From a virus (taxonomy: Duplodnaviria > Heunggongvirae > Uroviricota > Caudoviricetes), in the IMG/VR virus record IMGVR_UViG_2585427777_000013: 31,922 nucleotides of DNA. One strand, 5' to 3'. A program made the position numbers and the translations under genes. This document shows positions 7,202 through 27,338 of the stretch, one piece after another (within the stretch, counting starts at the first letter, position 1; each line of letters starts with the position of its first letter). The notes under the pieces are model-generated. The model searched no databases. It was not told where the DNA came from and worked only from the letters and a program-made list of their open reading frames with translations.

Positions 7202-8230
7202 TTATTTCACCTGCACCACCACAAACTCATCCGGATCCGGCAGCACCATCAGCGGCGCGGACTGCGTCATGGTGAATTCACAGGACGGATCGCCCACGGT
7301 CAACCAGTGTTTCGGGTAACGGGAAGAAGCCACCACTCCTTCGGACAACGCCTGTGCATCCTTAATGGCTCCATAGCAACGAATCCCCTCTGCTGCCGTA
7401 TTCCCCAGCACCAGCGTGCCCTCCGGCAGATAACGTTTTTCGGTACCGTCCTCTGCCACATAAGACGTTTTCGCTACCACAATGGCCAGATCGCCGTAAT
7501 ACCCCTTGAAGGATACCACTGCGCCCAGATCTTTCACTGCCGTTTCGAGTTGTGAATTTGAACCGCGACGGGTATCCAGTTTTTCGCGGAAAAGCTTAAA
7601 GCCATTCAGCAGACGCCAGACGGTACCGTCCATAATGGCAATATTCACAAGACCACTGGCCTGATCACAGAAAAGGTCGATATCATATGTCGGGTCGAAC
7701 GTGTCACGATCCTGTTTTGACCACTCCTTACCGCTACCCTGTATGATGTTATTCTTCGTCGATCGGCCAAAATCGACTTCAATTTTCTCGAACTGGTCTC
7801 CTTCCATCGTATATTTGCCATACAGCACGGCATTCACCGCCTGCATTTCTTCCACCTGCACAATAGCGTGCTCTTCCTGTTTGAGGTTATCAGTGATGAT
7901 ACGCAGACGACGGTAGGCCGGGTCGTTCAGCTGAGCCGGATCTTCACCGGGAAGGCGTTCAACCGCCTGCTGGTAATTAAATTCGTGTTTGGGCTTGACG
8001 TAGCCCGGACGTAACACGCGGGTTTCACCCCCACGATGACGCAGCACTTTTCCTTCAACGACCGGGGAGACATAGGCCGCCACCGGCGTTTTTCCGGTAA
8101 TTTTGTCCAGCATCACCTCTTCGGTGTGGAAATTCACCGTACGGCGGAAAAACAGCTCCAGAAACAGCGCACGGAATTTCACTTTTTGTTCGGTATAACC
8201 GAGTAACTGGCGGGTCGTAAACAATCCCAT
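7202..8230 (-). CDS. E: Major capsid protein E
   Basis: 342 aa, MGLFTTRQLLGYTEQKVKFRALFLELFF..TVNFHTEEV.LD matches lambda gpE. Confidence 0.92.
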   Translation of the reverse strand: MGLFTTRQLLGYTEQKVKFRALFLELFFRRTVNFHTEEVMLDKITGKTPVAAYVSPVVEGKVLRHRGGETRVLRPGYVKPKHEFNYQQAVERLPGEDPAQLNDPAYRRLRIITDNLKQEEHAIVQVEEMQAVNAVLYGKYTMEGDQFEKIEVDFGRSTKNNIIQGSGKEWSKQDRDTFDPTYDIDLFCDQASGLVNIAIMDGTVWRLLNGFKLFREKLDTRRGSNSQLETAVKDLGAVVSFKGYYGDLAIVVAKTSYVAEDGTEKRYLPEGTLVLGNTAAEGIRCYGAIKDAQALSEGVVASSRYPKHWLTVGDPSCEFTMTQSAPLMVLPDPDEFVVVQVK

Positions 8231-8287
8231 AAATCAGTTCCTTTCATTCAGAAATCAGTCAGGCCGCCATGGTGGCCTGATAACGTG

Positions 8288-8635
8288 TTACGGCAGAGCC
8301 GTGTGACTCAGGGCTGTGCCGGCAAAGGCATTTGCCTTTTTGTGTTCATCCACACTGTCAGGCCAGCGGATTGCCTCCGTCGCAAAGGTCCCCGACTTGT
8401 AATAGGTCAGCACCGTCTCTGTGCCTTCAAGCGGCAGTACCAGTATGCCAACCGCACTACCGGCTTTCTGTCCATCCCAGACCACCAGTTTCCCGGTGGC
8501 TTCATCCAGCATCAGGGGCGTCAGAGCCGGTGTTGCAGAAGAAATCCCGCTGCTGCCTGTGGCGGTATGAGCCGGATCATTACCGGCAAAAATACGTACT
8601 TCCGCACGCTGTTCAGTGATGGTTTTCGTCACCAT
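8288..8635 (-). CDS. D: Head decoration protein D
   Basis: 115 aa, MVTKTITEQRAEVRIFAGNDPAHTATGSSGISS..LTYYKSGTFATEAI.WP matches lambda gpD. Confidence 0.9.
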   Translation of the reverse strand: MVTKTITEQRAEVRIFAGNDPAHTATGSSGISSATPALTPLMLDEATGKLVVWDGQKAGSAVGILVLPLEGTETVLTYYKSGTFATEAIRWPDSVDEHKKANAFAGTALSHTALP

Positions 8636-8671
8636 TTTGTTAAAACCTCATATTGATGGTCAGCACTGACT

Positions 8672-10177
8672 TCATGGCATGGCCATGAGCATTTTCACGT
8701 CCGCATCACCGTCTTCTGACGTCTGTGACACGCCACCCCGCACCGCTGCCGGTGAATGATTCGCCATGAAATGTTCAAACAGGGCGGTTGTGGATGCAGA
8801 GACCGGTTCGGCCTTACCTGATCCCGCAGCCAGCACAGCCCGGGCGTTCTCCACGGTCATTCCCGGGCAGGCCGCCAGTTTTTCAGCCTGCGCTTCTGCC
8901 CCTTTTGCCTCATCCAGGGCCATGATCTGATCACGAAGTGAGGGCCCGGCATTCGCCTGCGGTGAGGCAGCCAGGATCGGGCGGGCTTTTTCCACCGTCA
9001 TCTCCGGCATCGCCGCCAGCGTTGCCGCCAGTTGTTCACGACCTTTCGCTTCTTCACACGCCATAATGCGATCGGCTTCACTCTGCGCGGATGCCACCGG
9101 CTGCTGCGGTGCCGCCGCGGCCAGAATCGCCCGGGCCTGTTCAACGCTCATGCCCTGTTGCCCTGCCAGCATCGTGGCAAGCTGTTCACGTCCTTTCGCT
9201 TCCTGGCATGTCAGGATCCCCATCACTCGCTGGTTCTCCTGCACGGCGGCTTCCGTTGCAGTTAATTGCGGCATAGTGCCTCCTCTGACATTACTGTTCA
9301 GCGCCGCAGCCATCACGCTGATGGCATCCGACGCATTGATTAATTCATCCGCCAGCCCGGCCTCAATGCCGGACTGACCTTCAAAAACGGCGGCCTCTGT
9401 TCCCGTGACCGCATCCACAGACAACCCGGTATACATCGCCACTTTTTCGGCAAACATCCGGTGCGCCGCATCAATCCGCTGCTGCATATCCTGGCGAACC
9501 TCTGCCGGCAACGCTTCAAACTGATTGCCATCCACCTTGTGCGCCCCGGCATAAATCAGCGTGATATCCACACCGGCCTGCGCCAGATGACCGGCATAGC
9601 TGACATGGCTCATCATCACGCCAATGGAGCCGATACGGGATGTCTGGGTAACCAGCCGTCGGGAGCAGGCCGACGCCAGCAGCATGGCTGCAGAACAGGC
9701 CGTGTCATTGCACAGTGCCCAGACCGGCTTCTGCTGACGGAGGCGGTAAATCATGTCAGCGCAGTCAAACGCGCCGGCGGCCTGCCCGCCCGGACTGTCA
9801 ATGTCCAGCAGTACGCCCCGCACCTGGCTATCCGCCATTGCCTGCTGAAGACAGGCGACAATACCGTCATAGCCTGTCATTCCGGAAAATGGCCGCATAC
9901 CACCCAGCCGGTGCACCAGCGTGCCGGTCACCGGCAGTACAGCAATACCGTTCACCACCCGGTAAACACGGGCCGGTCGTTTACCTCCGGCCATGTACTC
10001 ATCCGTTTCAGCCAGCATTCCGGGAGCATCAAACTGTACCTGCTGTTGTGGTACCGAAAGACTTGCTGCTCCCATCTCGCGCCCGAGCGCGCAAAAGAAA
10101 ACCCGCGCATAGGCGGGCTCCAGAAGCAGCGGTTCATTGAATGCTGCGGCAATAATGTGTGAAAGATTACGTCTCAC
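8672..10177 (-). CDS. C: Head maturation protease C (S49/ClpP-like) with C-terminal scaffold (Nu3-equivalent) region carrying three tandem repeats
   Basis: 501 aa, N-terminal AFNEPLLLEPAYARVFFCAL.. and protease core (..GIAVLPV.GTLV....SGMTGY.GI....DMD.PGG..AGAFDCAD.I..) match lambda gpC; GTG start overlapping the B stop; a nested Nu3 start was not mapped. Confidence 0.85.
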   Translation of the reverse strand: MRRNLSHIIAAAFNEPLLLEPAYARVFFCALGREMGAASLSVPQQQVQFDAPGMLAETDEYMAGGKRPARVYRVVNGIAVLPVTGTLVHRLGGMRPFSGMTGYDGIVACLQQAMADSQVRGVLLDIDSPGGQAAGAFDCADMIYRLRQQKPVWALCNDTACSAAMLLASACSRRLVTQTSRIGSIGVMMSHVSYAGHLAQAGVDITLIYAGAHKVDGNQFEALPAEVRQDMQQRIDAAHRMFAEKVAMYTGLSVDAVTGTEAAVFEGQSGIEAGLADELINASDAISVMAAALNSNVRGGTMPQLTATEAAVQENQRVMGILTCQEAKGREQLATMLAGQQGMSVEQARAILAAAAPQQPVASAQSEADRIMACEEAKGREQLAATLAAMPEMTVEKARPILAASPQANAGPSLRDQIMALDEAKGAEAQAEKLAACPGMTVENARAVLAAGSGKAEPVSASTTALFEHFMANHSPAAVRGGVSQTSEDGDADVKMLMAMP

Positions 10178-11759
10178 GTGGTGTTGTCTCCTCTTCCGGC
10201 CTGCGACTCTCCGCTATCTGCTGCTGATACGCCTGCGCTATCCACACCGGACGTGAGAGTCCGGCTTTTTGCCGCTCAGCAGATTCCCTGACCTGCTGGC
10301 GGAAAATGTCCTGATAATCCTCGCCCATCAGCGCCAGTTCTTTCTCATACGTGCTCAGTCCGGCCTCAATGCGCATCACTGATTCCTGGACTTCCTTGAG
10401 CCCGTCAATGGCCATTCTTCCGGCACCAATCCACTCTGCCCGTGACCAGGCTGATCGCGCCTGATAAAAATCAAAACGTGCCCGTGGCGGACGAATAATC
10501 CCCCGAAGAAGTGCCTCTTCCAGCCAGCAGGAAAACATCTGCGTGGCCAGCCGGGCCGCAATAAATTTTCGCCGCCCCATAAAATAGCGCCACGACTCAT
10601 TGGCGGAGGCGCGGGCACTTGAGTAACTGACCTTCGAGTAATCACGGGACAACTGTTCGTAGGAAACGCCAAGACCGGCGGCGATATACCGCAGCAGCGC
10701 CTGTTCAAGCGCAGAAAATCCATTGTCTGAATCCTGCGCAGTCTGTAGTTTCAGATCATCACCAGGGAAAAGGTGCGGAATTTTGACACCGCCCAGTGTC
10801 ACGTTATTCGTGTCATACCAGCTGGAGAACTTCTCCAGAATATTAATAAGCGGATTATCCTTCTGCTCCTGTGGCGCGCCGGCGATATATTCAAAGGCCT
10901 TTTCGGTATCAAGTTCACTTTCAATCGTCGCTGCATACATCGCCTTCACTATGGCCGACTGAAGCTGTGTTGCCTGCAGGGAATCGAGCATCTTCAGCCG
11001 TTCCATGACGCTGTAAAACTGATTAGCCCCACGGGTCTGCCCGTCCTCCACCGGCTCGAAAATATGCAGCATGGCCGGACGTCCGGTGGGAAGTTCACGC
11101 GGGATCCGTTCCCATCGTCCACTACCAGAGAACGGAAAATCATCCTCACAAATATGGTACGCGACGGCACGGCCATATCGATCGACCTCCACACCGGCCC
11201 GCAGAAAACGGTTCCCCATACCGTGTCCAGGCGTGTCCACCCGTTTCGGACTCACGGCTTTAAAACGCGTACGGAATAACTGCGTGGTTTCCGTATCCCA
11301 GACCGGCTGCACAAAGATTTCGCCGTTAAACGCATGAACGCCCACACCTTCACGGATAAATTCCGTGAACGTGCGTTTTCCTTCCACGTCGATCTCGCCA
11401 AACATCCCTTCGGCGTATTCCGACCAGGCCGCCTCCACCTCATCGACAAAGCTTTTTGCTGCGGTCTCCCGCATCCCCAGCCAGCGCCAGTTCGGACGGT
11501 AGCTGATCAGAAACATATGCCCGACAATGTGATCCTTATGCAGAGCCACCGCATTAGCCGCTATTCCGTTATTGCGCACCAGATCATCTGCCCGGGCATT
11601 CCCCAGACGCAACGCGGGTAGCAGGGCCGCATCGGCACTCTGCGCCGGTGGCAACCACTCAGCCATTTGCCCGCCAAATCCTGCACCGCCCCCGTTGTAG
11701 CTGAGACTCTCACGAAGCGGAACGCCGTTCACATCAATCAGGGCAGGCGTTCGTTTCAT
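10167..11759 (-). CDS. B: Portal protein B
   Basis: 530 aa ORF at the lambda gpB position between W and C, with lambda-like portal sequence; ATG start. Confidence 0.88.
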   Translation of the reverse strand: MKRTPALIDVNGVPLRESLSYNGGGAGFGGQMAEWLPPAQSADAALLPALRLGNARADDLVRNNGIAANAVALHKDHIVGHMFLISYRPNWRWLGMRETAAKSFVDEVEAAWSEYAEGMFGEIDVEGKRTFTEFIREGVGVHAFNGEIFVQPVWDTETTQLFRTRFKAVSPKRVDTPGHGMGNRFLRAGVEVDRYGRAVAYHICEDDFPFSGSGRWERIPRELPTGRPAMLHIFEPVEDGQTRGANQFYSVMERLKMLDSLQATQLQSAIVKAMYAATIESELDTEKAFEYIAGAPQEQKDNPLINILEKFSSWYDTNNVTLGGVKIPHLFPGDDLKLQTAQDSDNGFSALEQALLRYIAAGLGVSYEQLSRDYSKVSYSSARASANESWRYFMGRRKFIAARLATQMFSCWLEEALLRGIIRPPRARFDFYQARSAWSRAEWIGAGRMAIDGLKEVQESVMRIEAGLSTYEKELALMGEDYQDIFRQQVRESAERQKAGLSRPVWIAQAYQQQIAESRRPEEETTPRET

Positions 11760-11962
11760 AACCTCACTCCCAGCGGACGACGGCGACGCCGGGTTGTCCC
11801 CAGTACCGACTCCGCATCATTGATCGCCCGGTTAAGCTCATCCAGAGAAGCCGCCGTATATTCAATTCTGCGACCATCTTTCTGGACAGACACCACCCGT
11901 TTACCGGTTAATAAATCAAGGCGCGCCTGACGCAGCGCCTGTAGTTCAGCGACTGTAACCAT
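11756..11962 (-). CDS. W: Head-tail connector protein W
   Basis: 68 aa, ..LLTGKRVVSVQKDGRRIEYTAASL.. matches lambda gpW. Confidence 0.85.
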   Translation of the reverse strand: MVTVAELQALRQARLDLLTGKRVVSVQKDGRRIEYTAASLDELNRAINDAESVLGTTRRRRRPLGVRL

Positions 11963-13874
11963 TCACTCCTCCGGACAGCTTCGCTGCCAGTTCTTTAAGG
12001 GTTGGCCGGGTCGTCTCTTCTTCCCGGGATTTTGCCAGTACAGCCAGATCAAGCTGCCAGCGTTGCACGGACACACGTAATGCCGCATAGGCATACACCA
12101 GGCAGTCCAGCGCTTCGTTACGCCGCTTTTTGTTATCCCACAGCAGACGCATCTTTCCTTTTTCCCACTTCTCCACAAGCTCTTCCGCGACCAGTTGCTG
12201 CGCCTCTGTCTGCGAAAAAATCTCCGGATCATCAGGAAAACGGATGGCATACGACGTGGCTTCATCCGCAGGCGTGGGATCGGCTTTCATACGGGCATAG
12301 AGAATTTCTTTTGCGGTGTCCGTCCCCACTTCACACAGATACACGCCCCGCTGATTGCGGGTTTTCGGCATGGTGATCACCGGCTTGCCATAGACAGATG
12401 CGCCTTTTACCGGCAGCACCCGGAAAACACCGTGTTTTTTTGACCTCTGATAGACAATTTCACCATCGATTCCCCCGGTGTCCCAGCAGACACGGGAAAT
12501 GGTCATTTCGGTTCCGTCTGCATGGCAGTATTTTTTGTTGATCGCCGCATCCACACGTAACAGCGTCTCTTCCTCATCGGGACGGCCCATAATGATGATT
12601 TTATCCACCAGAAAAGCTTCCTCTCCCGGTGCCCATCCCCAGACATACATCTCAAAACGGTTTCGCTGCGAGTCAATGCCCGCCGTCAGATAAACCACCC
12701 GGGCTGGCACCGCCGCCGTGTAATGCACGACCTTATCCATCAGTACCTGGTGATCGAGTTTTTCGCCCACGGCCTCTTCCCAGGTCTCGCCCAGCGTGGT
12801 GTTCACAAAGGTTTTCAGGCCGTTGGGATCTTTCAGTGCATCCAGCCAGTCATAGACTATCTGTACCCAGGTGGTGAACGGACTGTACGCCGTCCAGATA
12901 TGGAACGTGATGGAGCGCGGCGGCGGAATTTCATTATCCGCGGAGCTGAAAAACGTCAGACCGTCACGGGTCCACATCCCCGTGTTTTCACAGATCCACC
13001 GCCCGTTGCTCTGGTCAAGCTCAGACTGATGGATCACGCAGCCATGATGTTCACAGAGGTAGAAAACGCTTTCGGGGCTGTCCTTCTCCCATTTAAGGCC
13101 AAAAGGCGTGGATTCATCGCCAAATTTCAGATACTGCTCCTCCCCACAGTGTGGGCAGGGCACATAAAAACGCATGAAATGCGCCGACTCGTTGGCCGCT
13201 TTTTCGATCTGGCAGGTGCCTTTGATTTTAGGCGTCGAGCCGCGAATGGATTTGGGCCATACAGAGCCCTCAATACGTTTATCCCCAAGCAGGGTTGGCG
13301 AACCCTCTTTTTCGACATCCGGTTCGAACGAGGAAAGTTCGTCATAGCAGACCACGTCCACGGATTTTTCACGGTAGTTTTTAGCGGCAGCCCCGCCCAG
13401 GCACCAGAAGCCCACGCCCGATGAAAAACGTTTCAGCGTGAGGGTATTATCACGATGTTTACGCCCAAACCACGGTGCAAGATCGAGTAAAACCGGCACA
13501 TCCCTGATCGTGGGTTCCACATGAGATTTCATAAAATCTTCAGCAGCAGAATCCGTGGGCTGGAAAAGAAGGCTGTTGCGTGATTTATGCTCAATAAAAT
13601 AAGCCTCCACTCCCAGCAACATCTTTGTATAACCAACACGGGCAGATTTAATCAGATTAACAGTGCGGATCCGGTCATTCCCCATGCTGTTCATGATGGC
13701 AACCTGAAACGGCAGTGTTTCCCACCGCCCCGGGGTGTAAGATGACTCTTTCGGAAGGTAATAATGTCGATCTGCCCACTGAACTGTCGTCAGAGGGACA
13801 GGAATTTTTAGCGCAAGGAGGCCGGTTGCTATCGCTCCTGCAGAATTAGCCGCCCTCAGTTCGTCTGAAATCAT
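11946..13874 (-). CDS. A: Terminase large subunit A
   Basis: Collinear with lambda gpA ([54 protein letters not shown]-terminal [24 protein letters not shown]); start placed at the internal ATG preceded by AGGTGG; the track ORF extends to 13916. Confidence 0.88.
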
Positions 13875-14394
13875 CAATCCACCTGCGCACATTCTCACCG
13901 GCTTCAGAAGCCACATCGGATGCTTTCGCGATTTCAGTTTTCACAGCATCAAGATGTACGGGTGATATATCAGGGTATTTACGCTGCAGTGTCTGAGGGA
14001 CACGGACAAGGATCCCTGATATATTCTGTGCCACTCGCTGAAAGATGTAGGTAAATAACTCCGTCTCGAGGACAAGGCCTTCCTCACGAGCATTTTTCAG
14101 CTCCTGTGCATCGGCCTGTGCCTTCGTCAGTCGGTAACGTTCGTAATCAATGGTGCCGGGCTGAAGGTCTGATTCGCTGGCAGCCCTCAAATCCTCGATC
14201 TCTTTACGGAGTTTTTCGTTTTCAATATCAGCTTCCCTCTGCGCATACCACTGAATGGCAGCAGTTGTATCAAAAACTGATTCAGTCCCTTTCCCTCCAC
14301 CAGAAACTAGTGGTAACCCCTGACTCTGCCAGGCGGTGATGGTCCTGACATCAACGCCAAAAATATCGGCCAGTTTTTTCTTATTGACGTTCAT
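13846..14394 (-). CDS. nu1: Terminase small subunit Nu1
   Basis: 182 aa, [24 protein letters not shown]...[54 protein letters not shown] matches lambda Nu1. Confidence 0.9.
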
Positions 14395-16500: not shown

Positions 16501-16599
16501 ATCACCACCAACGGATTGCCCAGACCAGAACAGCAATGGCCACAATACGAATGGCAAATGCCATTGCCCGAATAAGTTCAGCACTCATCTTTTTAAAGT

Positions 16600-16938: not shown

Positions 16939-17472
16939 TTATCTGTCAATTCCCCAGCACGCCAGCGCACTCTCCTGGTCGCGACGGGATACCTGACCGT
17001 AACAGTTGTTTGAGCGAATACGGCAGTCTCTGCCACCGTCCTTAATCCACCAGCGAATCGCTTCGCATGCTCCCCTGCGATCACCTGCATTAATTCGTCT
17101 GTAAAACGTCGACGGGAAACACTTACCGGGACCAATGTTGTACGGACAGAATGACGCGATCCCCGCTTTCTGGGGTTCGGTCAGCGGCACTCTGATGTTT
17201 TTCTCCACCCACGCCAGCGCTTTATCACGCTCAATGGCGTTAACCTGGTCGCATTTTTCCTTCGACAACTTCATGCCCGGAACGACAGGTTTGCCATCCA
17301 CCATGATGGCACCACGGCAGATGGTCCAGATACCCGCACCATCACGGTATGCCGTGGTGTGGTTGCCTTCTTTTTCATCCAGAAACTGGTCGAGAATTTC
17401 AGGCGCAGACGCACCAGCGGCAATCAGCGCCAGAACGGCAGCCGACAGGCCGTATCTGATTTTTGCGTTCAT
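16939..17472 (-). CDS. R: SAR endolysin (T4-lysozyme-like GH24 muramidase with N-terminal signal-anchor-release domain)
   Basis: N-terminal weakly hydrophobic Gly/Ala-rich segment (YGLSAAVLALIAAGASA), then an E-x8-D-x5-T catalytic triad (EGNHTTAYRDGAGIWT); ATG start. Confidence 0.85.
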   Translation of the reverse strand: MNAKIRYGLSAAVLALIAAGASAPEILDQFLDEKEGNHTTAYRDGAGIWTICRGAIMVDGKPVVPGMKLSKEKCDQVNAIERDKALAWVEKNIRVPLTEPQKAGIASFCPYNIGPGKCFPSTFYRRINAGDRRGACEAIRWWIKDGGRDCRIRSNNCYGQVSRRDQESALACWGIDR

Positions 17473-17597: not shown

Positions 17598-17873
17598 ATG
17601 AGTGAAGAAAATAGCAAAGAGAATACAGCACTTTTTGACAGAATTTTTACTCTTGAGTTACAGGTCGGTTTTCTTCTCCCAAAGATAATCAAAGCAATGG
17701 ATGCACTAAGTAAAAATAACGCTGTGTCAGATTACCTGATCGCCGAAATGGAACATCTAATTAAAGAAATACCAAAGACAGTTGCTCGTGATGATAAAAG
17801 ATTCCTCAAGGCTGCTGAAGATGCTCTTTCAACAGTGAAGCGCAGCTTAGATGCGCCGCGCGATCAAGAATAG
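17598..17873 (+). CDS. Hypothetical protein (cargo ORF inside the lysis cassette, opposite strand)
   Basis: 91 aa ORF with AAGGAA ribosome-binding site 5 nt before the ATG; AT-rich; no recognised family. Confidence 0.5.
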   Translation: MSEENSKENTALFDRIFTLELQVGFLLPKIIKAMDALSKNNAVSDYLIAEMEHLIKEIPKTVARDDKRFLKAAEDALSTVKRSLDAPRDQE

Positions 17874-18336
17874 TTTCTTTCATTTCATCTGCTGCAAGCA
17901 CCTCATTTTTTGTTGGGGTGCTTTTTTTCAATTCAGCGATATAGCACTCCAGTTTTTCAATGCGTGATTCAATATCATCGTTTTCTGACCGCAATGCCGT
18001 CGGTGGCGTCTTCAGAGAACCAGTAATTATTCCCGGTAGTTTTCCTCTGTAGGTTATCAACACATCCTGCGCCTCTAAAATTATGGGGCGCTTTTCCGGC
18101 AACGGACCATCCCCTTCACATAACCCGGCAGCAACATCCATGAAAAACTGCTTCGCCTGCTTTTTCGCCTCAGCTTCGTAAAACTCCAGCGTGGCATCTT
18201 CAGTACGGTCAAGACTAATCGCCACATCTGGCAACAACAGTGACGGATACCCACCAATTTCCAGTGCCACAGTAACAGTAATCTTATTCGGGTAATTATT
18301 TATCCCTTTAACAACCAGTTCGTATTTTTTCTTCAT
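17806..18336 (-). CDS. Hypothetical protein (cargo ORF between holin and endolysin)
   Basis: 176 aa ORF, ATG preceded by GGGGAGAG and starting 5 nt after the holin stop; AT-rich; no recognised family. Confidence 0.55.
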   Translation of the reverse strand: MKKKYELVVKGINNYPNKITVTVALEIGGYPSLLLPDVAISLDRTEDATLEFYEAEAKKQAKQFFMDVAAGLCEGDGPLPEKRPIILEAQDVLITYRGKLPGIITGSLKTPPTALRSENDDIESRIEKLECYIAELKKSTPTKNEVLAADEMKETILDRAAHLSCASLLKEHLQQP

Positions 18337-18340
18337 CGCT

Positions 18341-18556
18341 TTACTCTCCCCGCGCCGCCTTACGACGGTCCTCTCTGATTTTGAAATACAGGTTAGTCAG
18401 ATATGTCAGCAGCCCAAACAGCAGACTTCCCAGTACGCCTATTGCCGCCCACTGAGACGGGGAAACCCTGTCCAGCAGCTGCAGGAACCAGTAGCCCGTC
18501 CCCACCGCTGACGTGGTGTATGACACACCTGTTGTGATTTTTTCCATCTGGTACAT
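18341..18556 (-). CDS. S: Holin, phage-21 S-type (pinholin-like) with dual-start motif
   Basis: 71 aa, ..[50 protein letters not shown] matches S21/EssD as remembered; begins MYQM, giving two in-frame Met starts. Confidence 0.85.
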
Positions 18557-18631
18557 ACCCCGTCTCCCGCAATCCGGAAGCTCACAACAACAAGAGGGGC
18601 ATCAGCTCACACCGACAGCCCCTGCGCATGG

Positions 18632-18901
18632 TTACATCATCATTTCGCCGTCAGGCTGAGGCTCACTGCTACCATCAGGCTGAGACCCGACGCCATCTGA
18701 AACAGCACTGTCATCCGCAATGCCTTCCGGCTCCGGAACAGTCGGTGCGCCCAGCAGTTCATCCAGAATGGCATCCACTTCTGCATCAAGACGCGCCTCA
18801 AGGTTCTGCCGAAGTTGCTGTTTCAGTGCGCTTCTGACTTCTTCAGAGCGCAGGACTTCCTTCACTGCTTCAGCAGTGACCAGCGATTTTATTTCTGACA
18901 T
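18632..18901 (-). CDS. Hypothetical acidic protein
   Basis: ORF with ATG at 18901 (MSEIKSL..), acidic C-terminus; the track ORF begins upstream at a TTG. Confidence 0.35.
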   Translation of the reverse strand: MSEIKSLVTAEAVKEVLRSEEVRSALKQQLRQNLEARLDAEVDAILDELLGAPTVPEPEGIADDSAVSDGVGSQPDGSSEPQPDGEMMM

Positions 18902-18938
18902 GGTATTTTCTCGTTGAAAGGTGTTGTTAAGAAAGTTG

Positions 18939-19121
18939 CTACGGAATGAGAGGCTCTTCGGGTTTTGTTCCGGCTGACTGACTGGCACTGATTTTCTCAG
19001 CGGCCCTTTTGTCAATCTGCCTGCGCCAGAAATCTCTCACGACTCTGTACCCACCAGAAAGAAGATACAGCACACAAACTGCTGTACAGAAATACAACAT
19101 AATCAGCTGTAAAAATGTCAT
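18939..19121 (-). CDS. Hypothetical small protein with N-terminal hydrophobic segment
   Basis: 60 aa ORF with ATG start. Confidence 0.25.
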   Translation of the reverse strand: MTFLQLIMLYFCTAVCVLYLLSGGYRVVRDFWRRQIDKRAAEKISASQSAGTKPEEPLIP

Positions 19122-19269
19122 TATTCATCTCCATTATTGACATGGTCAATGCCTGCCAGTAAAAAACTCCTGCATTTTTTGCTCAGCATATTTTTGCTAA
19201 GGATGTAGCGACTTCTGCCGCCGGTTCTGGCTCCTTGTTTTCCCTGCCACGGCGGTCTTTTTTTCCTGC

Positions 19270-21213
19270 TTACGGGTTATTCACTTCCACTGTTATACTT
19301 TCAATCAGCACCGTATACGTCGCCGCTTTTGTGATATCCGTTACACGTAATTTGTCTGCCGCAAAAGAACCTACCGGAGACTGCGACAGCATGAACGGTG
19401 CACCATCCTGACCATCAATCACCGGCGTCACCTGAATGCTGTTATTACCGGCAAAACGGAAACCCAGCGTATGCCATTCGTTGTCAAATGCGCCGAATGA
19501 CCCCAGCTTCGTGTTCTGGTCAGCGTTACCCTTGTGGTACATCACGTTGAGGTCTGTGGCATCGCTCTGTACGTAAAACGACGCCAGCAGATTGTTACCG
19601 GCATTACCTTCCAGTGTGACACCCTGAGGCAATGAAGAAACCGGCCAGTACAGCGCCAGTGCGTACTGATTAGCCGTAAGCGCGCCATCGAGTTTAAAAC
19701 GACAACTGACAAGACCACCTTTACCCAGCAGGTCCGCACCATTACCAGCATCATGCTCAAGGTACCAGGGGGCTCTTCCTGTTTCCTTGGTCAGTTTCAT
19801 TGCCTTACCCCCGCTGGCTCCGGCATCATCCACGATTTGAGCCTTGCCACCTCCAGCAGCCCAACCCTGTGGTGTCAACCGTCCTTCAGACTCAGATGCC
19901 CGGTAAGCAAATAGCGTACTCATCGTCGTGGTGTCTGCGGGTGGCGTGGACGGTTTTGATGGTGTATCAGGTGACGGCTTCTCATCCGGTGGTGTCACGG
20001 TCTGCCCGCGCATCAATTCAGCCGTGCGCCCTGCATGGAGCATAATAGCTGAGGCCAGACGGTCTGAAATGACGCCCCTGCGTGCCCATGAGCTGAAATG
20101 GCTGTCACGCTGTGTCGAAACAAAACTGCCCTGGGTTCGGGATGCTGCACCGTAATACCCGACAGCCACAATATCCGGGTCTTCCGCCGGAGCATTCGTT
20201 GGCGTGCTCTGTCCATTCTCATCCGTCAGGAACGGTACAAAGAAAATATTCTGTGCTTCCCTGCCCTTGTAACCGCCATATACCGCCTCATATTTATCGG
20301 CGTTAAGATTCTTCCAGTAATACGTGGTGTCACCACAAATCCACGGCACCGAGCCAGCACTTCCGCCAACACACTGTGCAGAATATGCAGCCATATCAGC
20401 CCTGAACTGCTGCACCATAGTGGTAAACAGGCCGCTGTGCTGCTGACTGCCGTCCGCAAGATCATTTTCCCCCTGCATCCATACCACGGCCAGAAGCCTG
20501 TTTTTCGGGTTCTTCGACAGCGCCGCTTTTGTACGGAAGAGAAAATCCTGATACAGCGGTTTACCCACTCCCCAGCGGGCTGAATTTGCCGATGCGCCAG
20601 ACGTTTCGCTGAACGTGCCGTCATTCCCCACGGTTAAACCAGCCCCGCCACGGCAACAGGGCACCAGAAGAATCCCGGCATTCTGCGGGATATAAGGCAG
20701 AAGTTTTTTGGCAATATGCAGCCCCTGACCGACAGTCCCGTACTGGCCCTTACTCAGGTCTGCATGAGGATGGTTAAGTGCGCTCATGTCCTGAACATCA
20801 TGCAGACAGTGGTCTGCCGGAATAACGTCATTGTATGCACAGGTATCACCACCCGGCGTCACAGTGCTGCGACGGGCCAGCTGCTTAATACGGGAGTCAG
20901 GGCGATCATAGGTCTCCGGCAGAGGAAGCCCCTCACCATAGGCCATACCGTTCGACTGCCCGGCCAGGGGAATAACGTAGTAATACTCCGGTTCAGTGGT
21001 AGCCACTCCCGGAGAGCCACCAGCCCCTGTGTCGGGCACAACCACAGGCGTGGTCACATCACCCTCTGCGGCAATGGCCTGCATCAGTGTATAAGGCGTG
21101 ATAGCCACAGGACTGCCAAACGGCTGCCAGCCTTCCTTCAGTTTTTGTGTCAGTCGCTCCGCAAGGTCTGACGGCGACGCCGCCCTGACCACGTCATAGT
21201 GTTTAAATGCCAT
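19270..21213 (-). CDS. nanS: Prophage sialate O-acetylesterase (NanS-p-like; DUF1737 N-terminus + SGNH/SASA esterase + C-terminal lectin-like domain)
   Basis: Starts MAFKHYDVVRAASPSDLAERL (DUF1737-like); GQSN esterase block in YYYVIPLAGQSNGMAYGEG; strong GGAGG ribosome-binding site before the ATG at 21213; sits between the tRNA/stx locus and lysis genes as in Stx phages. Confidence 0.82.
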   Translation of the reverse strand: MAFKHYDVVRAASPSDLAERLTQKLKEGWQPFGSPVAITPYTLMQAIAAEGDVTTPVVVPDTGAGGSPGVATTEPEYYYVIPLAGQSNGMAYGEGLPLPETYDRPDSRIKQLARRSTVTPGGDTCAYNDVIPADHCLHDVQDMSALNHPHADLSKGQYGTVGQGLHIAKKLLPYIPQNAGILLVPCCRGGAGLTVGNDGTFSETSGASANSARWGVGKPLYQDFLFRTKAALSKNPKNRLLAVVWMQGENDLADGSQQHSGLFTTMVQQFRADMAAYSAQCVGGSAGSVPWICGDTTYYWKNLNADKYEAVYGGYKGREAQNIFFVPFLTDENGQSTPTNAPAEDPDIVAVGYYGAASRTQGSFVSTQRDSHFSSWARRGVISDRLASAIMLHAGRTAELMRGQTVTPPDEKPSPDTPSKPSTPPADTTTMSTLFAYRASESEGRLTPQGWAAGGGKAQIVDDAGASGGKAMKLTKETGRAPWYLEHDAGNGADLLGKGGLVSCRFKLDGALTANQYALALYWPVSSLPQGVTLEGNAGNNLLASFYVQSDATDLNVMYHKGNADQNTKLGSFGAFDNEWHTLGFRFAGNNSIQVTPVIDGQDGAPFMLSQSPVGSFAADKLRVTDITKAATYTVLIESITVEVNNP

Positions 21214-21300
21214 TATTCCTCCCCTTTCCGGGATTTTCCTCAACAGTTGCGGGCCACGGTCCGGCTACACGGAGAATCAAAAGAGGAGAACCGCAGCCCG

Positions 21301-21332
21301 CAAAACGAAAAAGGCCGCGCAGTTGCGCAGCC
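21301..21332 (-). terminator. Intrinsic terminator (minus strand) about 90 nt upstream of nanS-p
   Basis: Minus-strand hairpin GGCTGCGC-AACT-GCGCGGCC (one G-U pair) followed by TTTTTCGTTTT. Confidence 0.5.
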
Positions 21333-21395
21333 TTATCACAGATGGTAAAAATCAGAACACGATAATAAAAATACCTGATGTATATTCATGCGCCC

Positions 21396-21460
21396 CGCCC
21401 GCCACTCACTGCGGGCTTTTTTTTGCCCATAGAAAAGCCCCTCCGGAGAGGGGCTTTTTA
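21396..21460 (+). terminator. Two adjacent terminator-like hairpins; the second is bidirectional
   Basis: GCCCGC-cactcact-GCGGGC followed by TTTTTTTT; then AAAA-GCCCCTC-cgga-GAGGGGC-TTTTT. Confidence 0.5.
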
Positions 21461-21699
21461 CAGTGGTAGTGTAGACAATTTTGCATGGTGCCGGGTGCCT
21501 CCCGGTGAGTTCAGTATCAGCACCTGAACCCGCACAGAAAGGATAAGGGTCGGTGACAAAACACCAGTTGCTGATTGCCCCTCCGCACAGGGGGATTCAC
21601 CATGCCAGTTTCTTTTAACAAACTCCCCGCAAACCAGACAACAGTCAACCGCCTGAATTGTGAGGTATTTAAAAATTTCAACGGGTAACTGATACCCTG

Positions 21700-21861
21700 C
21701 TAATCGCCTGATGCTTTCTTTTTCAGCAACGGGAAAGCAACAACCACCACACCCGCCACCAGCACACCGTCAGCCAGCACTGACATTATCCGGCTGCTGA
21801 AGTCCACCATCACCACCATCACTACCAGAAACAGCAGGAGCGCAACCACAGCCAGACGCAT
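21700..21861 (-). CDS. Possible small hydrophobic peptide (53 aa, two predicted membrane segments)
   Basis: Hand-translated ORF MRLAVVALLLFLVVMVVMVDFSSRIMSVLADGVLVAGVVVVAFPLLKKKASGD starting 9 nt after the TerB-like stop; below the ORF-track size cutoff; weak ribosome-binding site. Confidence 0.3.
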   Translation of the reverse strand: MRLAVVALLLFLVVMVVMVDFSSRIMSVLADGVLVAGVVVVAFPLLKKKASGD

Positions 21862-21869
21862 TTTTACCG

Positions 21870-22301
21870 TCACAGATGATTCTCCAGACGAAGGCCCAGA
21901 ACACCGGCAATCTCTTCCAGCACCTTGCGCTCTTCCGGCTCTATTTCGCCGTCTGCTTCGGCAATGGCCACCGCCACATCCAGCACGTCTTCCGCTTCAC
22001 GCGTATCGTGTTTCACATCCTCGATCTCACGTAACGCCGCTCGACGACCAATTTTAAAGTTCGTATCCAGCTGACCGATAATGGTTGCGCTAATCGCATT
22101 AATTTCTGACGTAAACGCGGACAACGCAGGCTGGTTACGCAAGACCTGCTCGATCTTCGCTTTCTCTGAAGCCTCACATTCACCATCTGCATAGGCCACC
22201 AGATAGGCAGCATTAATAACCGCCTGTGCCAGATCACGTTTCTCAAACTTTTTAATTTCCACTGCCGCTCGGCGGGCTTTTTTACCAAAAATACCAAACA
22301 T
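21870..22301 (-). CDS. TerB-domain protein (tellurite-resistance TerB-like)
   Basis: Two ADG..E motifs (AYADGECEASEKAKIEQ and AEADGEIEPEERKVLEEIAGVLGL) typical of TerB; start at the internal ATG with AAGGA ribosome-binding site. Confidence 0.6.
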   Translation of the reverse strand: MFGIFGKKARRAAVEIKKFEKRDLAQAVINAAYLVAYADGECEASEKAKIEQVLRNQPALSAFTSEINAISATIIGQLDTNFKIGRRAALREIEDVKHDTREAEDVLDVAVAIAEADGEIEPEERKVLEEIAGVLGLRLENHL

Positions 22302-22433
22302 CGTGACGTTCCTTTGGGTGGGTGAGCCAACGCCCGGGAGCGATCTGCCCACAGAGAAAGTCACACTGACCACTCCGTAAGCTCACCCCCGAAAGGCTCT
22401 GTGGTTGATATGCGCCGGGCGTGGCGCGGATAC

Positions 22434-22457
22434 AAAAAAGGCCCGCAAAAGCGAGCC
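22434..22457 (-). terminator. Intrinsic terminator just downstream of the tRNA cluster
   Basis: Minus-strand hairpin GGCTCGC-TTTT-GCGGGCC (one G-U pair) followed by TTTTTTG. Confidence 0.4.
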
Positions 22458-22471
22458 GGGAAAAATAAGTC

Positions 22472-22548
22472 TGGCGCGTTGTACTGGATTCGAACCAGTG
22501 ACCGATTGCTTAGAAGGCAATTGCTCTGTCCGGCTGAGCTAACAACGC
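22472..22548 (-). tRNA. argO: tRNA-Arg, anticodon UCU
   Basis: Hand-folded cloverleaf: acceptor GCGUUGU/ACAACGC, D-arm GCUC..GAGC, anticodon stem AUUGC/GCAAU with loop CUUCUAA, T-arm ACUGG-UUCGAAU-CCAGU, encoded CCA. Confidence 0.85.
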
Positions 22549-22561
22549 AGGATACAGATAA

Positions 22562-22638
22562 TGAACCGCCTTCGGGGACCCGAACTCCGCGCAACCAGCT
22601 TCGAAGGCTGGCGCTCTTTCCTGATGAGCTAATGGCGG
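22562..22638 (-). tRNA. argN: tRNA-like gene, anticodon loop CUUCGAA (UCG, Arg); imperfect, possibly degenerate
   Basis: Perfect D-arm and anticodon arm (CCAGC-CUUCGAA-GCUGG), but an A-A mismatch in the acceptor stem, an A-C mismatch in the T-stem, T-loop UUCGGGU (G at position 58) and UCA instead of CCA at the 3' end. Confidence 0.45.
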
Positions 22639-22645
22639 TATGTGA

Positions 22646-22721
22646 TGGTGGCCCTTGCTGGATTTGAACCAGCGACCTGGCGATTATGAGTCGCTCGCTC
22701 TCACCACTGAGCTAAAGGGCC
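22646..22721 (-). tRNA. ileZ: tRNA with anticodon CAU, most like tRNA-Ile2 (lysidine, reads AUA); Met not excluded
   Basis: Hand-folded cloverleaf closely resembling E. coli ileX: acceptor GGCCCUU/AAGGGCC, anticodon loop CUCAUAA, T-arm GCUGG-UUCAAAU-CCAGC, encoded CCA. Confidence 0.8.
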
Positions 22722-22749
22722 GAGCCAAAAAATAATAATCAGATGAAAA

Positions 22750-23463
22750 TCAATAATCAAGCCCTTGCCTGGATACATATCTGTCTGGCGGGAAGCCATA
22801 ATAGCGGTGAAATACAGAAATAAAGTAGGACCTGCTTGAATAACCGCATTTTTCTGCTATAGCCTGTCCATATCCATGCCGGGAACATAACATATTTACA
22901 GCAACACGCATCCGCTCTTCCAGCAACAAGCGACTGAACATGCCCCCTTCATTTTTCAGTTTTGTCTTTAACAAACTCTCACTCATATGCAACTGTAGAG
23001 CAATCGCACAAAGCGTCCAGCTTGCTGATATATCTGTCTGAATTATCGCCCTGACTTTGGCACTTATGCTGGATAAACATCCACTTAAAAACAATGACAT
23101 CCGTTCATCTGTTTCAAACAGAGACAGGCAGGCCATCATAAGAAACATATCCGTGGCCTCTCCGGAAAATCCCTGGCTGGTAATTAAAGCCGCAGCCAAC
23201 GCAGGATTGTTGGGTTCCAGCAACAGGTAAAGCGGAATGTCAGTCAGACGAGTCCTCGTCAGCTTATGCTGACTTTCCAGATATTGACTTACGACGGATT
23301 CGCTTATATCGACAATTTTAACTTTGCCATAATGCATAAGGAAAAGCTCCCTGATGCATTTGGTGGCCAGAACAACTGAGCCTGGCTTAAGTGACAACGT
23401 ATCCTTTTCAAGAAAAATATTAATTGGGGAGCAAACCATGATAACTGAACAGACAACAGCCAT
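22750..23463 (-). CDS. AraC/XylS-family transcriptional regulator
   Basis: 237 aa; C-terminal AraC-type HTH signature (..LLLEERMRVAVNML..GYGQAIAEKCGYSSRSYFISVFHRYYGFPPDRY); AT-rich; ATG start. Confidence 0.8.
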   Translation of the reverse strand: MAVVCSVIMVCSPINIFLEKDTLSLKPGSVVLATKCIRELFLMHYGKVKIVDISESVVSQYLESQHKLTRTRLTDIPLYLLLEPNNPALAAALITSQGFSGEATDMFLMMACLSLFETDERMSLFLSGCLSSISAKVRAIIQTDISASWTLCAIALQLHMSESLLKTKLKNEGGMFSRLLLEERMRVAVNMLCSRHGYGQAIAEKCGYSSRSYFISVFHRYYGFPPDRYVSRQGLDY

Positions 23464-23596
23464 TATAATTTTACTTTCATTAGCAATTGGTTAGCTCAAT
23501 TATAGCCCCAAAAGGTAAATTATCATCAACACATAAGCAAAGGACTGACAGGTGTCGCCCCCCACCAGCCGCCCATTCACCACAAATAAAAAGCCT

Positions 23597-23794
23597 TCAG
23601 GACTGAAGGCGTCTGTAACAACCGCACTGATAGTCTGCCAGACCCACCATAACAAGCTGGGTCAGTATTAACTGGCAGCGTTCGCGTGAAAGGTAAGTAT
23701 TCTGCGCAATCTCCCCGACGGTCGCCGGTTCGGTGACGCTTAATTCATTAAACACCACTCTGGCGGTTTCTGTCATATCCTGCTGTTTTAGCAT
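23597..23794 (-). CDS. Small putative HTH DNA-binding protein
   Basis: About 65 aa from an internal ATG (MLKQQDMTETARVVFNELSVTEPATVGEIAQNTYLSRERCQLILTQL); the longer track ORF begins at a TTG; divergent from the DUF262 gene. Confidence 0.35.
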   Translation of the reverse strand: MLKQQDMTETARVVFNELSVTEPATVGEIAQNTYLSRERCQLILTQLVMVGLADYQCGCYRRLQS

Positions 23795-23913
23795 GTCTTT
23801 TTCCCTTTTCCGGTTAACGTGACACACCAATAACTCTTGTCGAAAAAGCCAGCAAGCTGAAAGACAGGTATTCGCAACCACCAGCACGTTTAACGTACTG
23901 CGCCGTTTTTCGG

Positions 23914-23937
23914 ACACAAAAAACCGCCTGGCGGCGG
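23914..23937 (-). terminator. Weak terminator-like hairpin on the minus strand in the HTH/DUF262 intergenic region
   Basis: Minus-strand CCGCC-gcca-GGCGG followed by TTTTTTTG; stem is only 5 bp. Confidence 0.3.
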
Positions 23938-24047
23938 GTTTAAGCTGTGTGGCGTAGTAACCACTCTTAACACGATATAATATTTTTTGCGTACGCGTTA
24001 TAGTTTTCTTACAATCTATTTCCAACTCCAATTAAAGGAACAGTGAT

Positions 24048-25205: not shown

Positions 25206-25207
25206 CT

Positions 25208-26969: not shown

Positions 26970-27338
26970 TTACATAGAACTTAAGTCATTGTAGTAAATG
27001 AAAAATGACAAGCAGCCATCAATAAACCCCATTGCTGTTTGCATCTCTTTCCGTATTGTTCCATCTGAACATTTCCGTTTTTTAGCAATAGCGCGTAATG
27101 AGATACCAATAACAAAGTGAGCAATGATCAACTCATACTCTTCGGGTTTATACTTTCGCAACCGAGCCACACAACCGTCTATCATGATACCTTCGTCATC
27201 ATCACACTGGAGACGTGACTTTTTACCGTGTGGTAAAAGCCCCTTGAAGCCTGCTGCTATCGGCTGCCAGTCCACACCACTGTTATCTGCTGCAGCCCAG
27301 GCCCCCCAACGATCTAAAACTTCGTACATATCACGCAT
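26970..27338 (-). CDS. Q: Late-gene antitermination protein Q (Q82/QuuD-type)
   Basis: 122 aa, MRDMYEVLDRWGAWAA..IAAGFKGL..C.DD...I..GC.ARL.K.. resembles DLP12 QuuD as remembered; lies between replication genes and the late region. Confidence 0.7.
   Translation of the reverse strand: MRDMYEVLDRWGAWAAADNSGVDWQPIAAGFKGLLPHGKKSRLQCDDDEGIMIDGCVARLRKYKPEEYELIIAHFVIGISLRAIAKKRKCSDGTIRKEMQTAMGFIDGCLSFFIYYNDLSSM

Follow-up and report, generated by a model that had tools for sequence, protein, structure and literature searches.

A probable NanS-p-type sialate O-acetylesterase in the late region of an stx-negative, lambda-type Escherichia coli prophage

The chromosomal esterase NanS of E. coli (YjhS, PDB 3PT5) belongs to the nan regulon and is a single-domain protein whose catalysis depends on a Ser19-His301 dyad, with an oxyanion hole built from Gln18 and a Gly and no catalytic Asp (PMC9063846, PMC9487903); the sequence blocks of the NanS family have been tabulated (PMC10792757). 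Its phage-borne relatives, designated NanS-p, have been described in Stx phages (933W L0105/z1466; phi24B vb_24B_21, identical to gp84; PDB 6YP6), and their presence in non-Stx prophages is already on record (PMC10462455, PMC8065619). Enzymes encoded by Stx and non-Stx prophages alike have proved active and allow growth on Neu5,9Ac2 (PMC8065619, PMC10462455), and nanS-p expression in Stx2a phages rises by 1-2.4 logs on mitomycin C treatment (PMC10462455). An aromatic sugar site has been proposed for the C-terminal domain (PMC10462455), and a preprint has described the PasD/STnc100-esterase-holin arrangement (10.64898/2026.05.13.724894). A second preprint reports that gp84 of phi24B is an abundant virion protein, the small N-terminal DUF1737 of which (residues 2-57) sits as a hexamer in the pore of face-centre hexons of a T=9 capsid and bears an outward-facing carbohydrate-active part (10.64898/2026.04.10.717836).

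The window analysed here is a stretch of 31,922 nucleotides of a Caudoviricetes virus (IMG/VR record IMGVR_UViG_2585427777_000013) and contains a minus-strand ORF of 647 amino acids (Table 1). On the strength of its sequence and surroundings, this ORF is very probably an intact gene for a three-domain NanS-p-type sialate 9-O-acetylesterase, and constitutes a conserved late-region backbone gene of an stx-negative, lambda-type E. coli prophage with a gpE/gpD head and a long tail. The family is a characterised one, and this member of it, already annotated, stands where such genes usually stand.

Domain architecture and catalytic residues

The residues M[A/T/S][F/I]KHYD occupy the position of the ATG in nearly all of 188 full-length homologues, and this agreement, together with a GGAGG motif 4 nt before the ATG, makes an in-frame TTG at 21243 an unlikely start. 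The match to PHROG 143 spans the full length of the protein (1075 bits). The protein search against NanS and NanS-p that the earlier note had put forward as a check returned NanS 3PT5 over residues 71-391 (E 4.9e-113), the NanS-p C-terminal domain 6YP6 over residues 432-646 (E 1.4e-98) and, as closest RefSeq entry, the 'SASA family carbohydrate esterase' WP_032184487.1, identical at 646 of 647 residues (A191 here, S191 there). Pfam places DUF1737 (PF08410) at residues 3-50 (E 1.1e-15, profile positions 1-53 of 53), SASA (PF03629) at residues 149-278 (E 2.2e-11) and DUF6645 at residues 496-613 (E 7e-69). The protein thus runs from DUF1737 through a NanS-like SASA domain to a DUF6645 jelly roll, and the proposal of a NanS-p-type sialate O-acetylesterase with a DUF1737-like N-terminus, an SGNH-type GQSN block and a long C-terminal domain is borne out by Pfam, the PDB matches and the alignment to characterised homologues. 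Neither NCBIfam nor PADLOC returned a match for the protein, so a defence-system reading is not entertained.

The three-domain architecture, the key residues of blocks I-V and the four aromatics of the proposed sugar site (Y517, Y522, Y547 and F617) are shared with the NanS-p of Stx phages; the experimentally characterised 933W L0105 and phi24B vb_24B_21 are both 67% identical to the window protein from end to end and agree with it at every block residue. Overall amino-acid identity to Stx-phage NanS-p is, however, 66-67%, and the NanS-p enzymes assayed to date are only 66-69% identical to the window allele. The window protein further departs from Stx-phage NanS-p in a DUF1737 loop that is 3 residues shorter, in a Pro-rich linker 2 that is longer by 7 residues, and in reading QGEND for QGEFD, RDSH for RASH and a private alanine at position 191. 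The linker at residues 392-431 is the most variable part of the alignment, and the QGEND/QGEFD difference carries no meaning, since position 250 tolerates several residues without constraint (F 66, N 8, G 6, A 4). Chromosomal NanS aligns end to end with residues 71-391, with which it shares the Ser-His dyad, the Gln/Gly oxyanion hole and the MQGE block, but it lacks both DUF1737 and the jelly roll. In a scan of one genome per species, NanS also occurred in Shigella, Proteus and Edwardsiella, whereas the full three-domain form was confined to Escherichia.

Judging from the alignment, the catalytic apparatus of NanS is conserved in the window protein, with Ser87 as predicted nucleophile, His372 as base, Gln86 and Gly190 as oxyanion hole and, as in NanS, no catalytic Asp. 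Block I reads GQSN (residues 85-88), block II RGGA (Gly190 followed by A191), block III MQGE (residues 246-249) and block V RDSH. Residues G85-Q86-S87-N88, M246-Q247-G248, D251, R369 and H372-F373 are invariant in 84 of 84 NanS-p sequences, and E249 is kept in 83 of them. The canonical SGNH features (a Ser-His-Asp triad, D-x-x-H in block V and a block III Asn as part of the oxyanion hole) are not found in this protein, which has R-D-S-H and Gln86 instead, and the block V Asp at -2 from His372 is itself variable among the 84 sequences (D 7, A 62, K 12). This departure is the known SASA/NanS deviation and not a defect. The absence of a Ser/His/Asp triad, which the earlier note would have taken as evidence against an esterase, is therefore a mis-specified test, since NanS itself operates with a Ser-His dyad and no catalytic Asp (PMC9063846, PMC9487903).

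Table 1. Features of the window, all on the minus strand, with coordinates and the evidence for each
Feature	Coordinates	Strand	Evidence or remarks
nanS-p CDS	19270..21213	-	647 aa; ATG 21213-21211, stop 19272-19270; ORF, Pfam, PHROG, PDB matches
Shine-Dalgarno GGAGG	21218..21222	-	Read from sequence
N-terminal DUF1737 domain, residues 1-56	21046..21213	-	Pfam PF08410; variant 'N1', loop FGSPVAITPYTLMQAI
NanS-like SASA/SGNH-type esterase domain, residues 71-391	20041..21003	-	3PT5 match
Gln86 codon (block I)	20958-20956	-	Alignment
Ser87 codon (block I)	20955-20953	-	Alignment
His372 codon (block V)	20100-20098	-	Alignment
Inter-domain linker, residues 392-431	19921..20040	-	Sequence; Pro/Ser/Thr-rich
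C-terminal DUF6645 lectin-like jelly-roll domain, residues 432-646	19276..19920	-	6YP6 and Pfam DUF6645
Antiterminator Q (Phage_antitermQ), presumed activator of late transcription through nanS-p	26970..27338	-	Pfam 3.3e-47
pR'/qut/tR'-like element	23914..23987	-	76% identity with a portion of the pR'-qut-tR' region annotated in 933W; hairpin 23937-23924 + T6
Three phage tRNAs (CAU 'Met'/Ile2, Arg-TCG, Arg-TCT)	22472..22721	-	Homologous to 933W ileZ-argN-argO, 93% identity
TerB-family gene	21870-22301	-	Pfam; in 933W stx2AB slot
DUF3927 gene	21700-21873	-	Pfam; in 933W stx2AB slot
STnc100 (PasD-related) prophage sRNA	21425..21634	-	Rfam RF02076, 145.6 bits, E 1.5e-32; own terminator 21451-21438
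Intrinsic-terminator-like hairpin GGCTGCGCAACTGCGCGGCC + T-tract	21301..21334	-	About 100 nt upstream of nanS-p
DUF1378	18939-19121	-	Downstream late gene
DUF826	18632-18901	-	Downstream late gene
Class II holin	18341-18556	-	Downstream late gene
DUF1327	17806-18336	-	Downstream late gene
Lysozyme R	16939-17472	-	Downstream late gene
Rz	16033-16584	-	Downstream late gene
Lambda-type head module (Nu1, gpA terminase, lambda-family portal, S49 protease, gpD, gpE)	7202..14394	-	Pfam
gpD decoration protein	8288-8635	-	Pfam
gpE major capsid protein (Phage_cap_E)	7202-8230	-	Pfam

The private S191A substitution falls on the residue after the oxyanion glycine (Gly122 in NanS), where NanS (block II RGGSAF) and 83 of the 84 homologues have Ser. 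Its proximity to this glycine raises the notion that nanS-p is a decaying relic of a defective prophage, either inactive or not expressed at all, and the same notion could draw on the altered C-terminus of Q and the insertion between Q and pR', as well as on the mosaic make-up of a prophage that has only 18085-23938 in common with that of strain S1-CAM-01-A. We regard decay as very unlikely: the ORF is full-length and preceded by a strong ribosome-binding site, all catalytic and sugar-site residues are intact, and dN/dS lies well below 1 in every domain (0.05-0.33), which points to purifying selection on all three. Moreover, the head, tail and lysis genes of the window have uninterrupted reading frames that match Pfam over their full length, and the block formed by Q, methylase, DUF262 and HEPN is kept in about 100 genomes.

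A functional enzyme might still act on something other than host mucin sialic acid. Its true substrate could be a bacterial surface glycan (O-acetylated O-antigen, O-acetylated K1 polysialic acid or colanic acid), the modification of which would aid adsorption or block superinfection. A bacterial substrate has been raised in a review (PMC8065619), SASA-family members are known to cleave non-sialic substrates such as acetylxylan (PMC9487903), and display on the virion would suit a receptor-modifying role. We nonetheless consider it improbable: every NanS-p tested so far removes O-acetyl groups from mucin and cleaves Neu5,9Ac2 (PMC8065619), the catalytic domain shares about 65% identity with chromosomal NanS, which works best on 9-O-acetyl Neu5Ac (PMC9487903), and the window gives no hint of any particular bacterial glycan. 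The activity expected of the window protein is the removal of 9-O-acetyl groups from Neu5,9Ac2 and mucin glycans, and the deacetylated sialic acid would then become usable by the surviving lysogen population.

Late region, cargo slot and expression

As in Stx phages, nanS-p is found between the tRNAs and cargo slot, on one side, and the DUF1378-DUF826-holin-lysozyme genes, on the other, with a conserved terminator about 100 nt upstream. The late-region position and the minus-strand terminator invoked by the earlier note are both present: the gene lies between the region comprising Q, pR'-tR', the tRNAs and the cargo slot and the holin-lysozyme-Rz cassette, and the hairpin and T-tract at 21334-21311 fold with -15.5 to -20.8 kcal/mol, depending on the folded segment. 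A similar hairpin and T-run stands about 90-110 nt upstream in 63 of 86 nanS-p loci, Stx phages included. A sub-threshold Rfam search of 18300-22500 retrieved only STnc100 and neither AgvB nor AsxR; weak matches to Leu/Phe leaders in the same interval were rejected as below threshold. The nearest relatives of this region are the prophages of E. coli S1-CAM-01-A and NMBU-W12E19 (WP_032184487.1), with which the window shares, at 98% nucleotide identity, a 5.9-kb module from holin to tR' that includes TerB, DUF3927, STnc100 and the tRNAs, and from which it differs in the head, tail and early regions.

The stx-negative context was confirmed by a tblastn search of the whole window with Stx2A/B, which gave a best E above 1 and no Stx-like coding sequence. 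Homology to 933W breaks off beyond the tRNAs, at 22423, and is picked up again at 21663, a point 45 nt past the stx2B stop in 933W; by this alignment, TerB and DUF3927 replace stx2AB precisely, in a slot between the tRNAs and the STnc100 sRNA. S1-CAM-01-A carries the same pair, and PPyecE_EH1910 has a TerB gene. By megablast, nanS-p-like sequence occupies 6068 places in 1113 E. coli genomes, as against 743 places in 602 genomes for stx2. The view that host-adaptation cargo has here been retained without the toxin consequently inverts the picture: nanS-p is late-region backbone and far commoner than stx, whereas stx, TerB with DUF3927, and IraM are swappable cargo in the slot upstream. Most nanS-p in E. 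coli occurs in the absence of stx, and the present case matters little as a finding in itself, but it serves as a useful reminder of which of these neighbours are exchangeable.

With regard to expression, homologues and the literature suggest that nanS-p would show little or no expression in the lysogen, since there are two intrinsic terminators immediately upstream and a sigma-70 consensus is missing between the second of them and the start codon. A consensus scan predicted no promoter between 21311 and 21213, and promoter-like sites are not enriched there over shuffled sequence. RNA polymerase modified by Q would read through the terminators and transcribe nanS-p with the late genes, and both position and terminators fit such a Q-dependent late induction. 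Two features nevertheless cast doubt on late transcription at this locus: the C-terminus of Q is altered, and a 3-kb methylase/DUF262/HEPN block separates Q from the pR'-like element. Q is 61% identical to that of phage Stx2_95, but its C-terminus differs and is devoid of the conserved LGVRLEMD, nor is the pR'-like element conserved in its -35 part. Since the N-terminal sequence, judged by eye, contains no evident signal peptide, NanS-p would presumably leave the cell at phage lysis, either free, attached to the virion through DUF1737, or both.

DUF1737 and the head module

The phi24B precedent suggests a different role for the protein, compatible with its enzymology but altering its biology. 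NanS-p might primarily be a virion protein, with DUF1737 docked on the lambda-type capsid and the esterase and lectin-like domains displayed on the head, where they would serve the phage through mucus adherence or penetration and later proteolytic release, instead of acting as a moron of benefit to the lysogen. We deem this a serious possibility, albeit one that falls short of being likely. Capsid binding has been established only for a T=9 podovirus of the Phage_capsid_3 type, the comparator that carries stx2; the window belongs to a siphovirus prophage without stx, and its capsid is of the gpE type with its own gpD decoration protein. The head module is a candidate binding partner for DUF1737. 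The loop that carries the Tyr42 anchor in gp84 is 3 residues shorter in the window DUF1737; a Tyr (Y41) is present, but its equivalence to Tyr42 is ambiguous.

Support for capsid docking comes from the co-variation of DUF1737 cluster and head-gene module across 96 IMG/VR loci. The window-type DUF1737 (N1) occurs with gpE-type heads A/A2 in 50 loci, with HK97-type heads (D) in 19 and with type C in 3; the phi24B type accompanies head type B in 9 loci and type D in 1, and the Stx2_95 type accompanies head type C in 13. In a permutation test on the 23 distinct combinations, DUF1737 clusters tracked the head module (p 0.0005), whereas SASA (p 0.99) and C-terminal (p 1.0) clusters occurred with all head types. 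These two domains lie between DUF1737 and the head genes and yet do not follow head type, and the flanks of the gene (400 nt upstream and 1.4 kb downstream) are common across head types. The association is therefore non-contiguous and points to functional coupling. Within the N1 group, DUF1737 is moreover under very strong constraint (dN/dS 0.05-0.06 at dS 0.4-0.75). On the other hand, N1 pairs with two unrelated capsid families (gpE-type and HK97-type, PF05065), which speaks against a tight lock-and-key fit, and 4 of the 96 loci are exceptions to the pairing, three of them type-C heads with N1 and one a type-D head with the phi24B-type domain. The sample itself consists of the loci most similar to three query alleles, with some contigs present twice and kinship ignored, and the species-wide scan was of no help here, having yielded no further three-domain loci outside Escherichia.

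We tentatively propose that in lambda-type (gpE/gpD) and HK97-type siphovirus prophages NanS-p may be a head-displayed enzyme and not a moron, each head module keeping a matching DUF1737 adaptor, whereas the esterase and lectin domains pass freely between phages. In line with the discussion in the preprint, Hoc of phage T4 would be a functional analogue of such a glycan-binding capsid decoration. The designation of the gene as a moron or host-adaptation cargo in the earlier note may thus be incomplete, given that the phi24B homologue decorates the capsid (10.64898/2026.04.10.717836) and that the DUF1737 variant co-varies with head type among the loci compared here. This co-variation, which fits the preprint, is the one point worth carrying forward. 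If the proposed head display is true, DUF1737 would be a general modular capsid-docking tag, well beyond phi24B-type particles. Confirmation of the co-variation would mean that the role of NanS-p in lysogen nutrition needs to be re-weighed against a role at the virion surface, and could make DUF1737 a means of predicting or engineering display on the capsid across several types of phage head.

The nanS-p product and its catalytic residues

The nanS-p reading frame carries a GGAGG 4 nt ahead of its ATG, and nearly all of the 188 full-length homologues begin at this position with M[A/T/S][F/I]KHYD; an in-frame TTG at 21243 is hence unlikely to be the start. PHROG 143 matches the protein from end to end and, among solved structures, the chromosomal single-domain esterase NanS/YjhS (3PT5) aligns with residues 71-391 (E 4.9e-113) and the NanS-p C-terminal domain 6YP6 with residues 432-646 (E 1.4e-98). 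Together with the Pfam assignments, these matches bear out the earlier note, which had described a NanS-p-type esterase with the correct coordinates, domains and GQSN motif and had proposed a protein search as a check on its identity.

Features of the late region and of the NanS-p protein, in transcriptional order from Q
Feature	Position	Strand	Remarks
Q	26970-27338	-	
C5 cytosine methyltransferase	25866-26906	-	
DUF262/GmrSD_N and HEPN pair	24048-25897	+	low GC
pR'/qut/tR'-like element	23987-23914	-	followed by 198-bp ORF
AraC-type regulator	22750-23463	-	
tRNAs	22472-22721	-	three
TerB	21870-22301	-	
DUF3927	21700-21873	-	
STnc100 sRNA	21634-21425	-	full length; Rfam RF02076, 145.6 bits; own terminator
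STnc100 terminator-like hairpin	21451-21438	-	-23 kcal/mol
Hairpin and T-tract	21334-21311	-	-15.5 to -20.8 kcal/mol, varying with segment folded
nanS-p	21213 (ATG) to 19270 (stop included)	-	647 aa
DUF1737	NanS-p residues 3-50		Pfam
SASA	NanS-p residues 149-278		Pfam
DUF6645	NanS-p residues 496-613		Pfam
DUF1378, DUF826, holin, DUF1327, lysozyme, Rz		-	
TonB-domain ORF	15114-15455	-	PF03544, 1.4e-14
Nu1, gpA, lambda-type portal, S49 protease, gpD, gpE		-	
Lambda-type tail genes		-	

The same note would have rejected the assignment if a Ser/His/Asp triad were absent, a test that is mis-specified for this family because NanS works through Ser19 and His301 and has no catalytic Asp, its oxyanion hole being formed by Gln18 and a glycine (PMC9063846, PMC9487903); the NanS blocks are GQSNA, RGGSAF, MQGEFD and R-x-SHFS (PMC10792757). 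Mapped through the 3PT5 alignment, the equivalents in the window NanS-p are Gln86-Ser87, Gly190, M246-Q247-G248-E249 and His372. G85-Q86-S87-N88, M246-Q247-G248, D251, R369 and H372-F373 do not vary across an alignment of 84 full-length NanS-p proteins, of which 83 also keep E249. The Ser-His dyad with the Gln, Gly and MQGE blocks is the correct test of the family and, judging from the aligned residues, the window protein possesses the full set. The aromatics proposed to bind sugar in the phi24B C-terminal domain (Y510, Y515, Y540 and F611; PMC10462455) have conserved counterparts in Y517, Y522, Y547 and F617, and pairwise dN/dS between the window gene and five alleles lies at 0.05-0.33 in each domain.

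Residue 191 (codon 20641-20643), which directly follows the oxyanion glycine in the NanS block alignment, is Ala in the window NanS-p and Ser in NanS and in 83/84 homologues. Ser191 is also present in RefSeq WP_032184487.1, a protein from two genomes that matches the window copy at every other residue. S191A is thus a private change of the window copy, and a caveat on its predicted catalytic competence that merits following up.

Late-region organization and the cargo slot

All genes from Q through the tail lie on the minus strand, save the DUF262/HEPN pair. The order Q, tRNAs, nanS-p, holin agrees with the late-region position previously proposed, and the stx-negative context was likewise correctly called, a tblastn with Stx2A/B having found no Stx-like sequence anywhere in the window. 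The hairpin and T-tract at 21334-21311 correspond to the minus-strand terminator predicted ahead of nanS-p. A similar hairpin and T-run occur at the same distance from the gene in 63 of 86 loci, Stx phages included, and the element is therefore a feature of the module and nothing special to the window. A consensus scan between this hairpin and the nanS-p start found no sigma-70 consensus. Published work reports that mitomycin C and norfloxacin induce nanS-p (PMC10462455, PMC8065619); from this and from its position, the gene would be expressed late and in a Q-dependent manner. Two uncertainties attach to the predicted late antitermination: Q ends in ...GCLSFFIYYNDLSSM, without the C-terminal LGVRLEMD common to Stx2_95 Q and Q933, and 3 kb containing the methylase/DUF262/HEPN block separate it from the nearest pR'/qut/tR'-like sequence downstream. 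The -35 region of this pR'-like element is not conserved.

DNA homology to the Q-S region of the Stx phage 933W is limited to the tRNAs (93%) and to a stretch (71%) that begins 45 nt past the stx2B stop and extends over nanS-p as far as the holin. Since homology is confined to these two stretches, the stx2AB operon of 933W is precisely replaced in the window by TerB and DUF3927.

The interval between the tRNAs and STnc100 (21663-22423) has sharp homology borders and is a site of cargo exchange. Its content is stx2AB in 933W, TerB and DUF3927 in the window and in E. coli S1-CAM-01-A, IraM in E. coli MLI109, and a TerB gene in PPyecE_EH1910; several IMG/VR contigs have TerB together with IraM there. 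STnc100, located between DUF3927 and nanS-p, is related to PasD, for which the arrangement PasD/STnc100-esterase-(PasA/C)-holin has been described (preprint 10.64898/2026.05.13.724894). Between Q and the pR'-like element, the plus-strand pair (GC 0.37) adjoins the C5 methyltransferase; its DUF262/GmrSD_N member matches PADLOC NsnA (5.6e-46) and PD-T4-2_A (4e-27), and its partner is a MAE_28990-type HEPN nuclease. The whole block (24048-26906) resembles a defence/anti-defence island set within the late-promoter region, and is also present in ~100 E. coli genomes, those listed being of human isolates. The small ORF with a TonB C-terminal domain, in a lower-GC stretch between Rz and Nu1, is a possible moron; MLI109 has a "TonB family protein" at a comparable place.

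Prevalence of nanS-p and its relation to stx

The 5.9 kb from holin to tR' (18085-23938) are 98% identical to a prophage of S1-CAM-01-A, where nanS-p is annotated as "SASA family carbohydrate esterase". The match is restricted to this segment; outside it the two prophages differ in head, tail and early region, and for the early region and Q block it is MLI109 that matches the window. By these sequence matches, the window prophage is clearly a three-parent mosaic.

In a megablast of 5426 complete E. coli genomes with the window allele as sole query, nanS-p-like matches were found at 6068 places in 1113 genomes (median 6 per genome), including EPEC E2348/69 and mouse, pig and human isolates, all scored for nanS-p alone. 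Non-Stx prophages are known to encode NanS-p, and such alleles are active (PMC10462455, PMC8065619). Given these counts, the annotated S1-CAM-01-A copy and this literature, the window nanS-p is an ordinary, already known gene that had been correctly identified. When one genome per species was scanned, Escherichia alone had the three-domain form, and single-domain NanS was present in Shigella, Proteus and Edwardsiella as well. Matches to stx2AB, as against the 6068 for nanS-p, numbered 743 places in 602 genomes. The earlier view of nanS-p as cargo retained without the toxin thus turns the relationship round: nanS-p belongs to the backbone, and several different inserts, stx among them, alternate beside it.

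Co-variation of DUF1737 with the capsid head

The phi24B NanS-p, gp84, is an abundant virion protein whose DUF1737 forms a hexamer plugging the face-centre hexons of a T=9 capsid, anchored by Tyr42, the remainder of the protein being cleaved off later; the authors of that work infer that DUF1737 marks phi24B-like particles (preprint 10.64898/2026.04.10.717836). The window prophage has a lambda-type gpE/gpD head, quite different from the phi24B capsid, and we therefore tested the coupling between DUF1737 and head. Three IMG/VR scans yielded 188 full-length nanS-p genes, 96 of them with downstream DNA sufficient for head typing, in a sample composed of the loci closest to three query alleles and including some contigs twice. 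Heads were typed as A or A2 (gpE-type capsid), B (phi24B Phage_capsid_3), C (ClpP-capsid fusion, Phage_capsid_4) and D (HK97-type PF05065), and DUF1737 clusters were cut at 80% identity.

The window variant, N1, occurs with A (44 loci), A2 (6), D (19) and C (3), the phi24B type with B (9) and D (1), the Stx2_95 type with C (13) and the L013 type with C (1). By a permutation statistic that ignores phylogeny, over 23 distinct combinations, the DUF1737 cluster tracks head type (p 0.0005), whereas the SASA domain (p 0.99) and the C-terminal domain (p 1.0) do not. SASA and C-terminal "bodies" of one kind occur with all five head types, and the nanS-p flanks (400 nt upstream and 1.4 kb downstream) are also common to different heads. 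With shuffled segments thus separating DUF1737 from the head genes, the pattern is not explained by simple linkage and points to selection for a matching pair. The rule is broken in 4 of the 96 typed loci (three type-C loci with N1, among them L019, and one type-D locus with the phi24B type), and N1 itself occurs with two capsid-protein families, gpE-type and HK97-type.

The DUF1737 anchor loop of the window NanS-p is 3 residues shorter than that of phi24B. Display of this protein on its capsid is a tentative reading, which we consider somewhat less likely than not, and it is compatible with the esterase enzymology of NanS-p. The points worth pursuing are the co-variation of DUF1737 with the head and, for the window copy, its private S191A.
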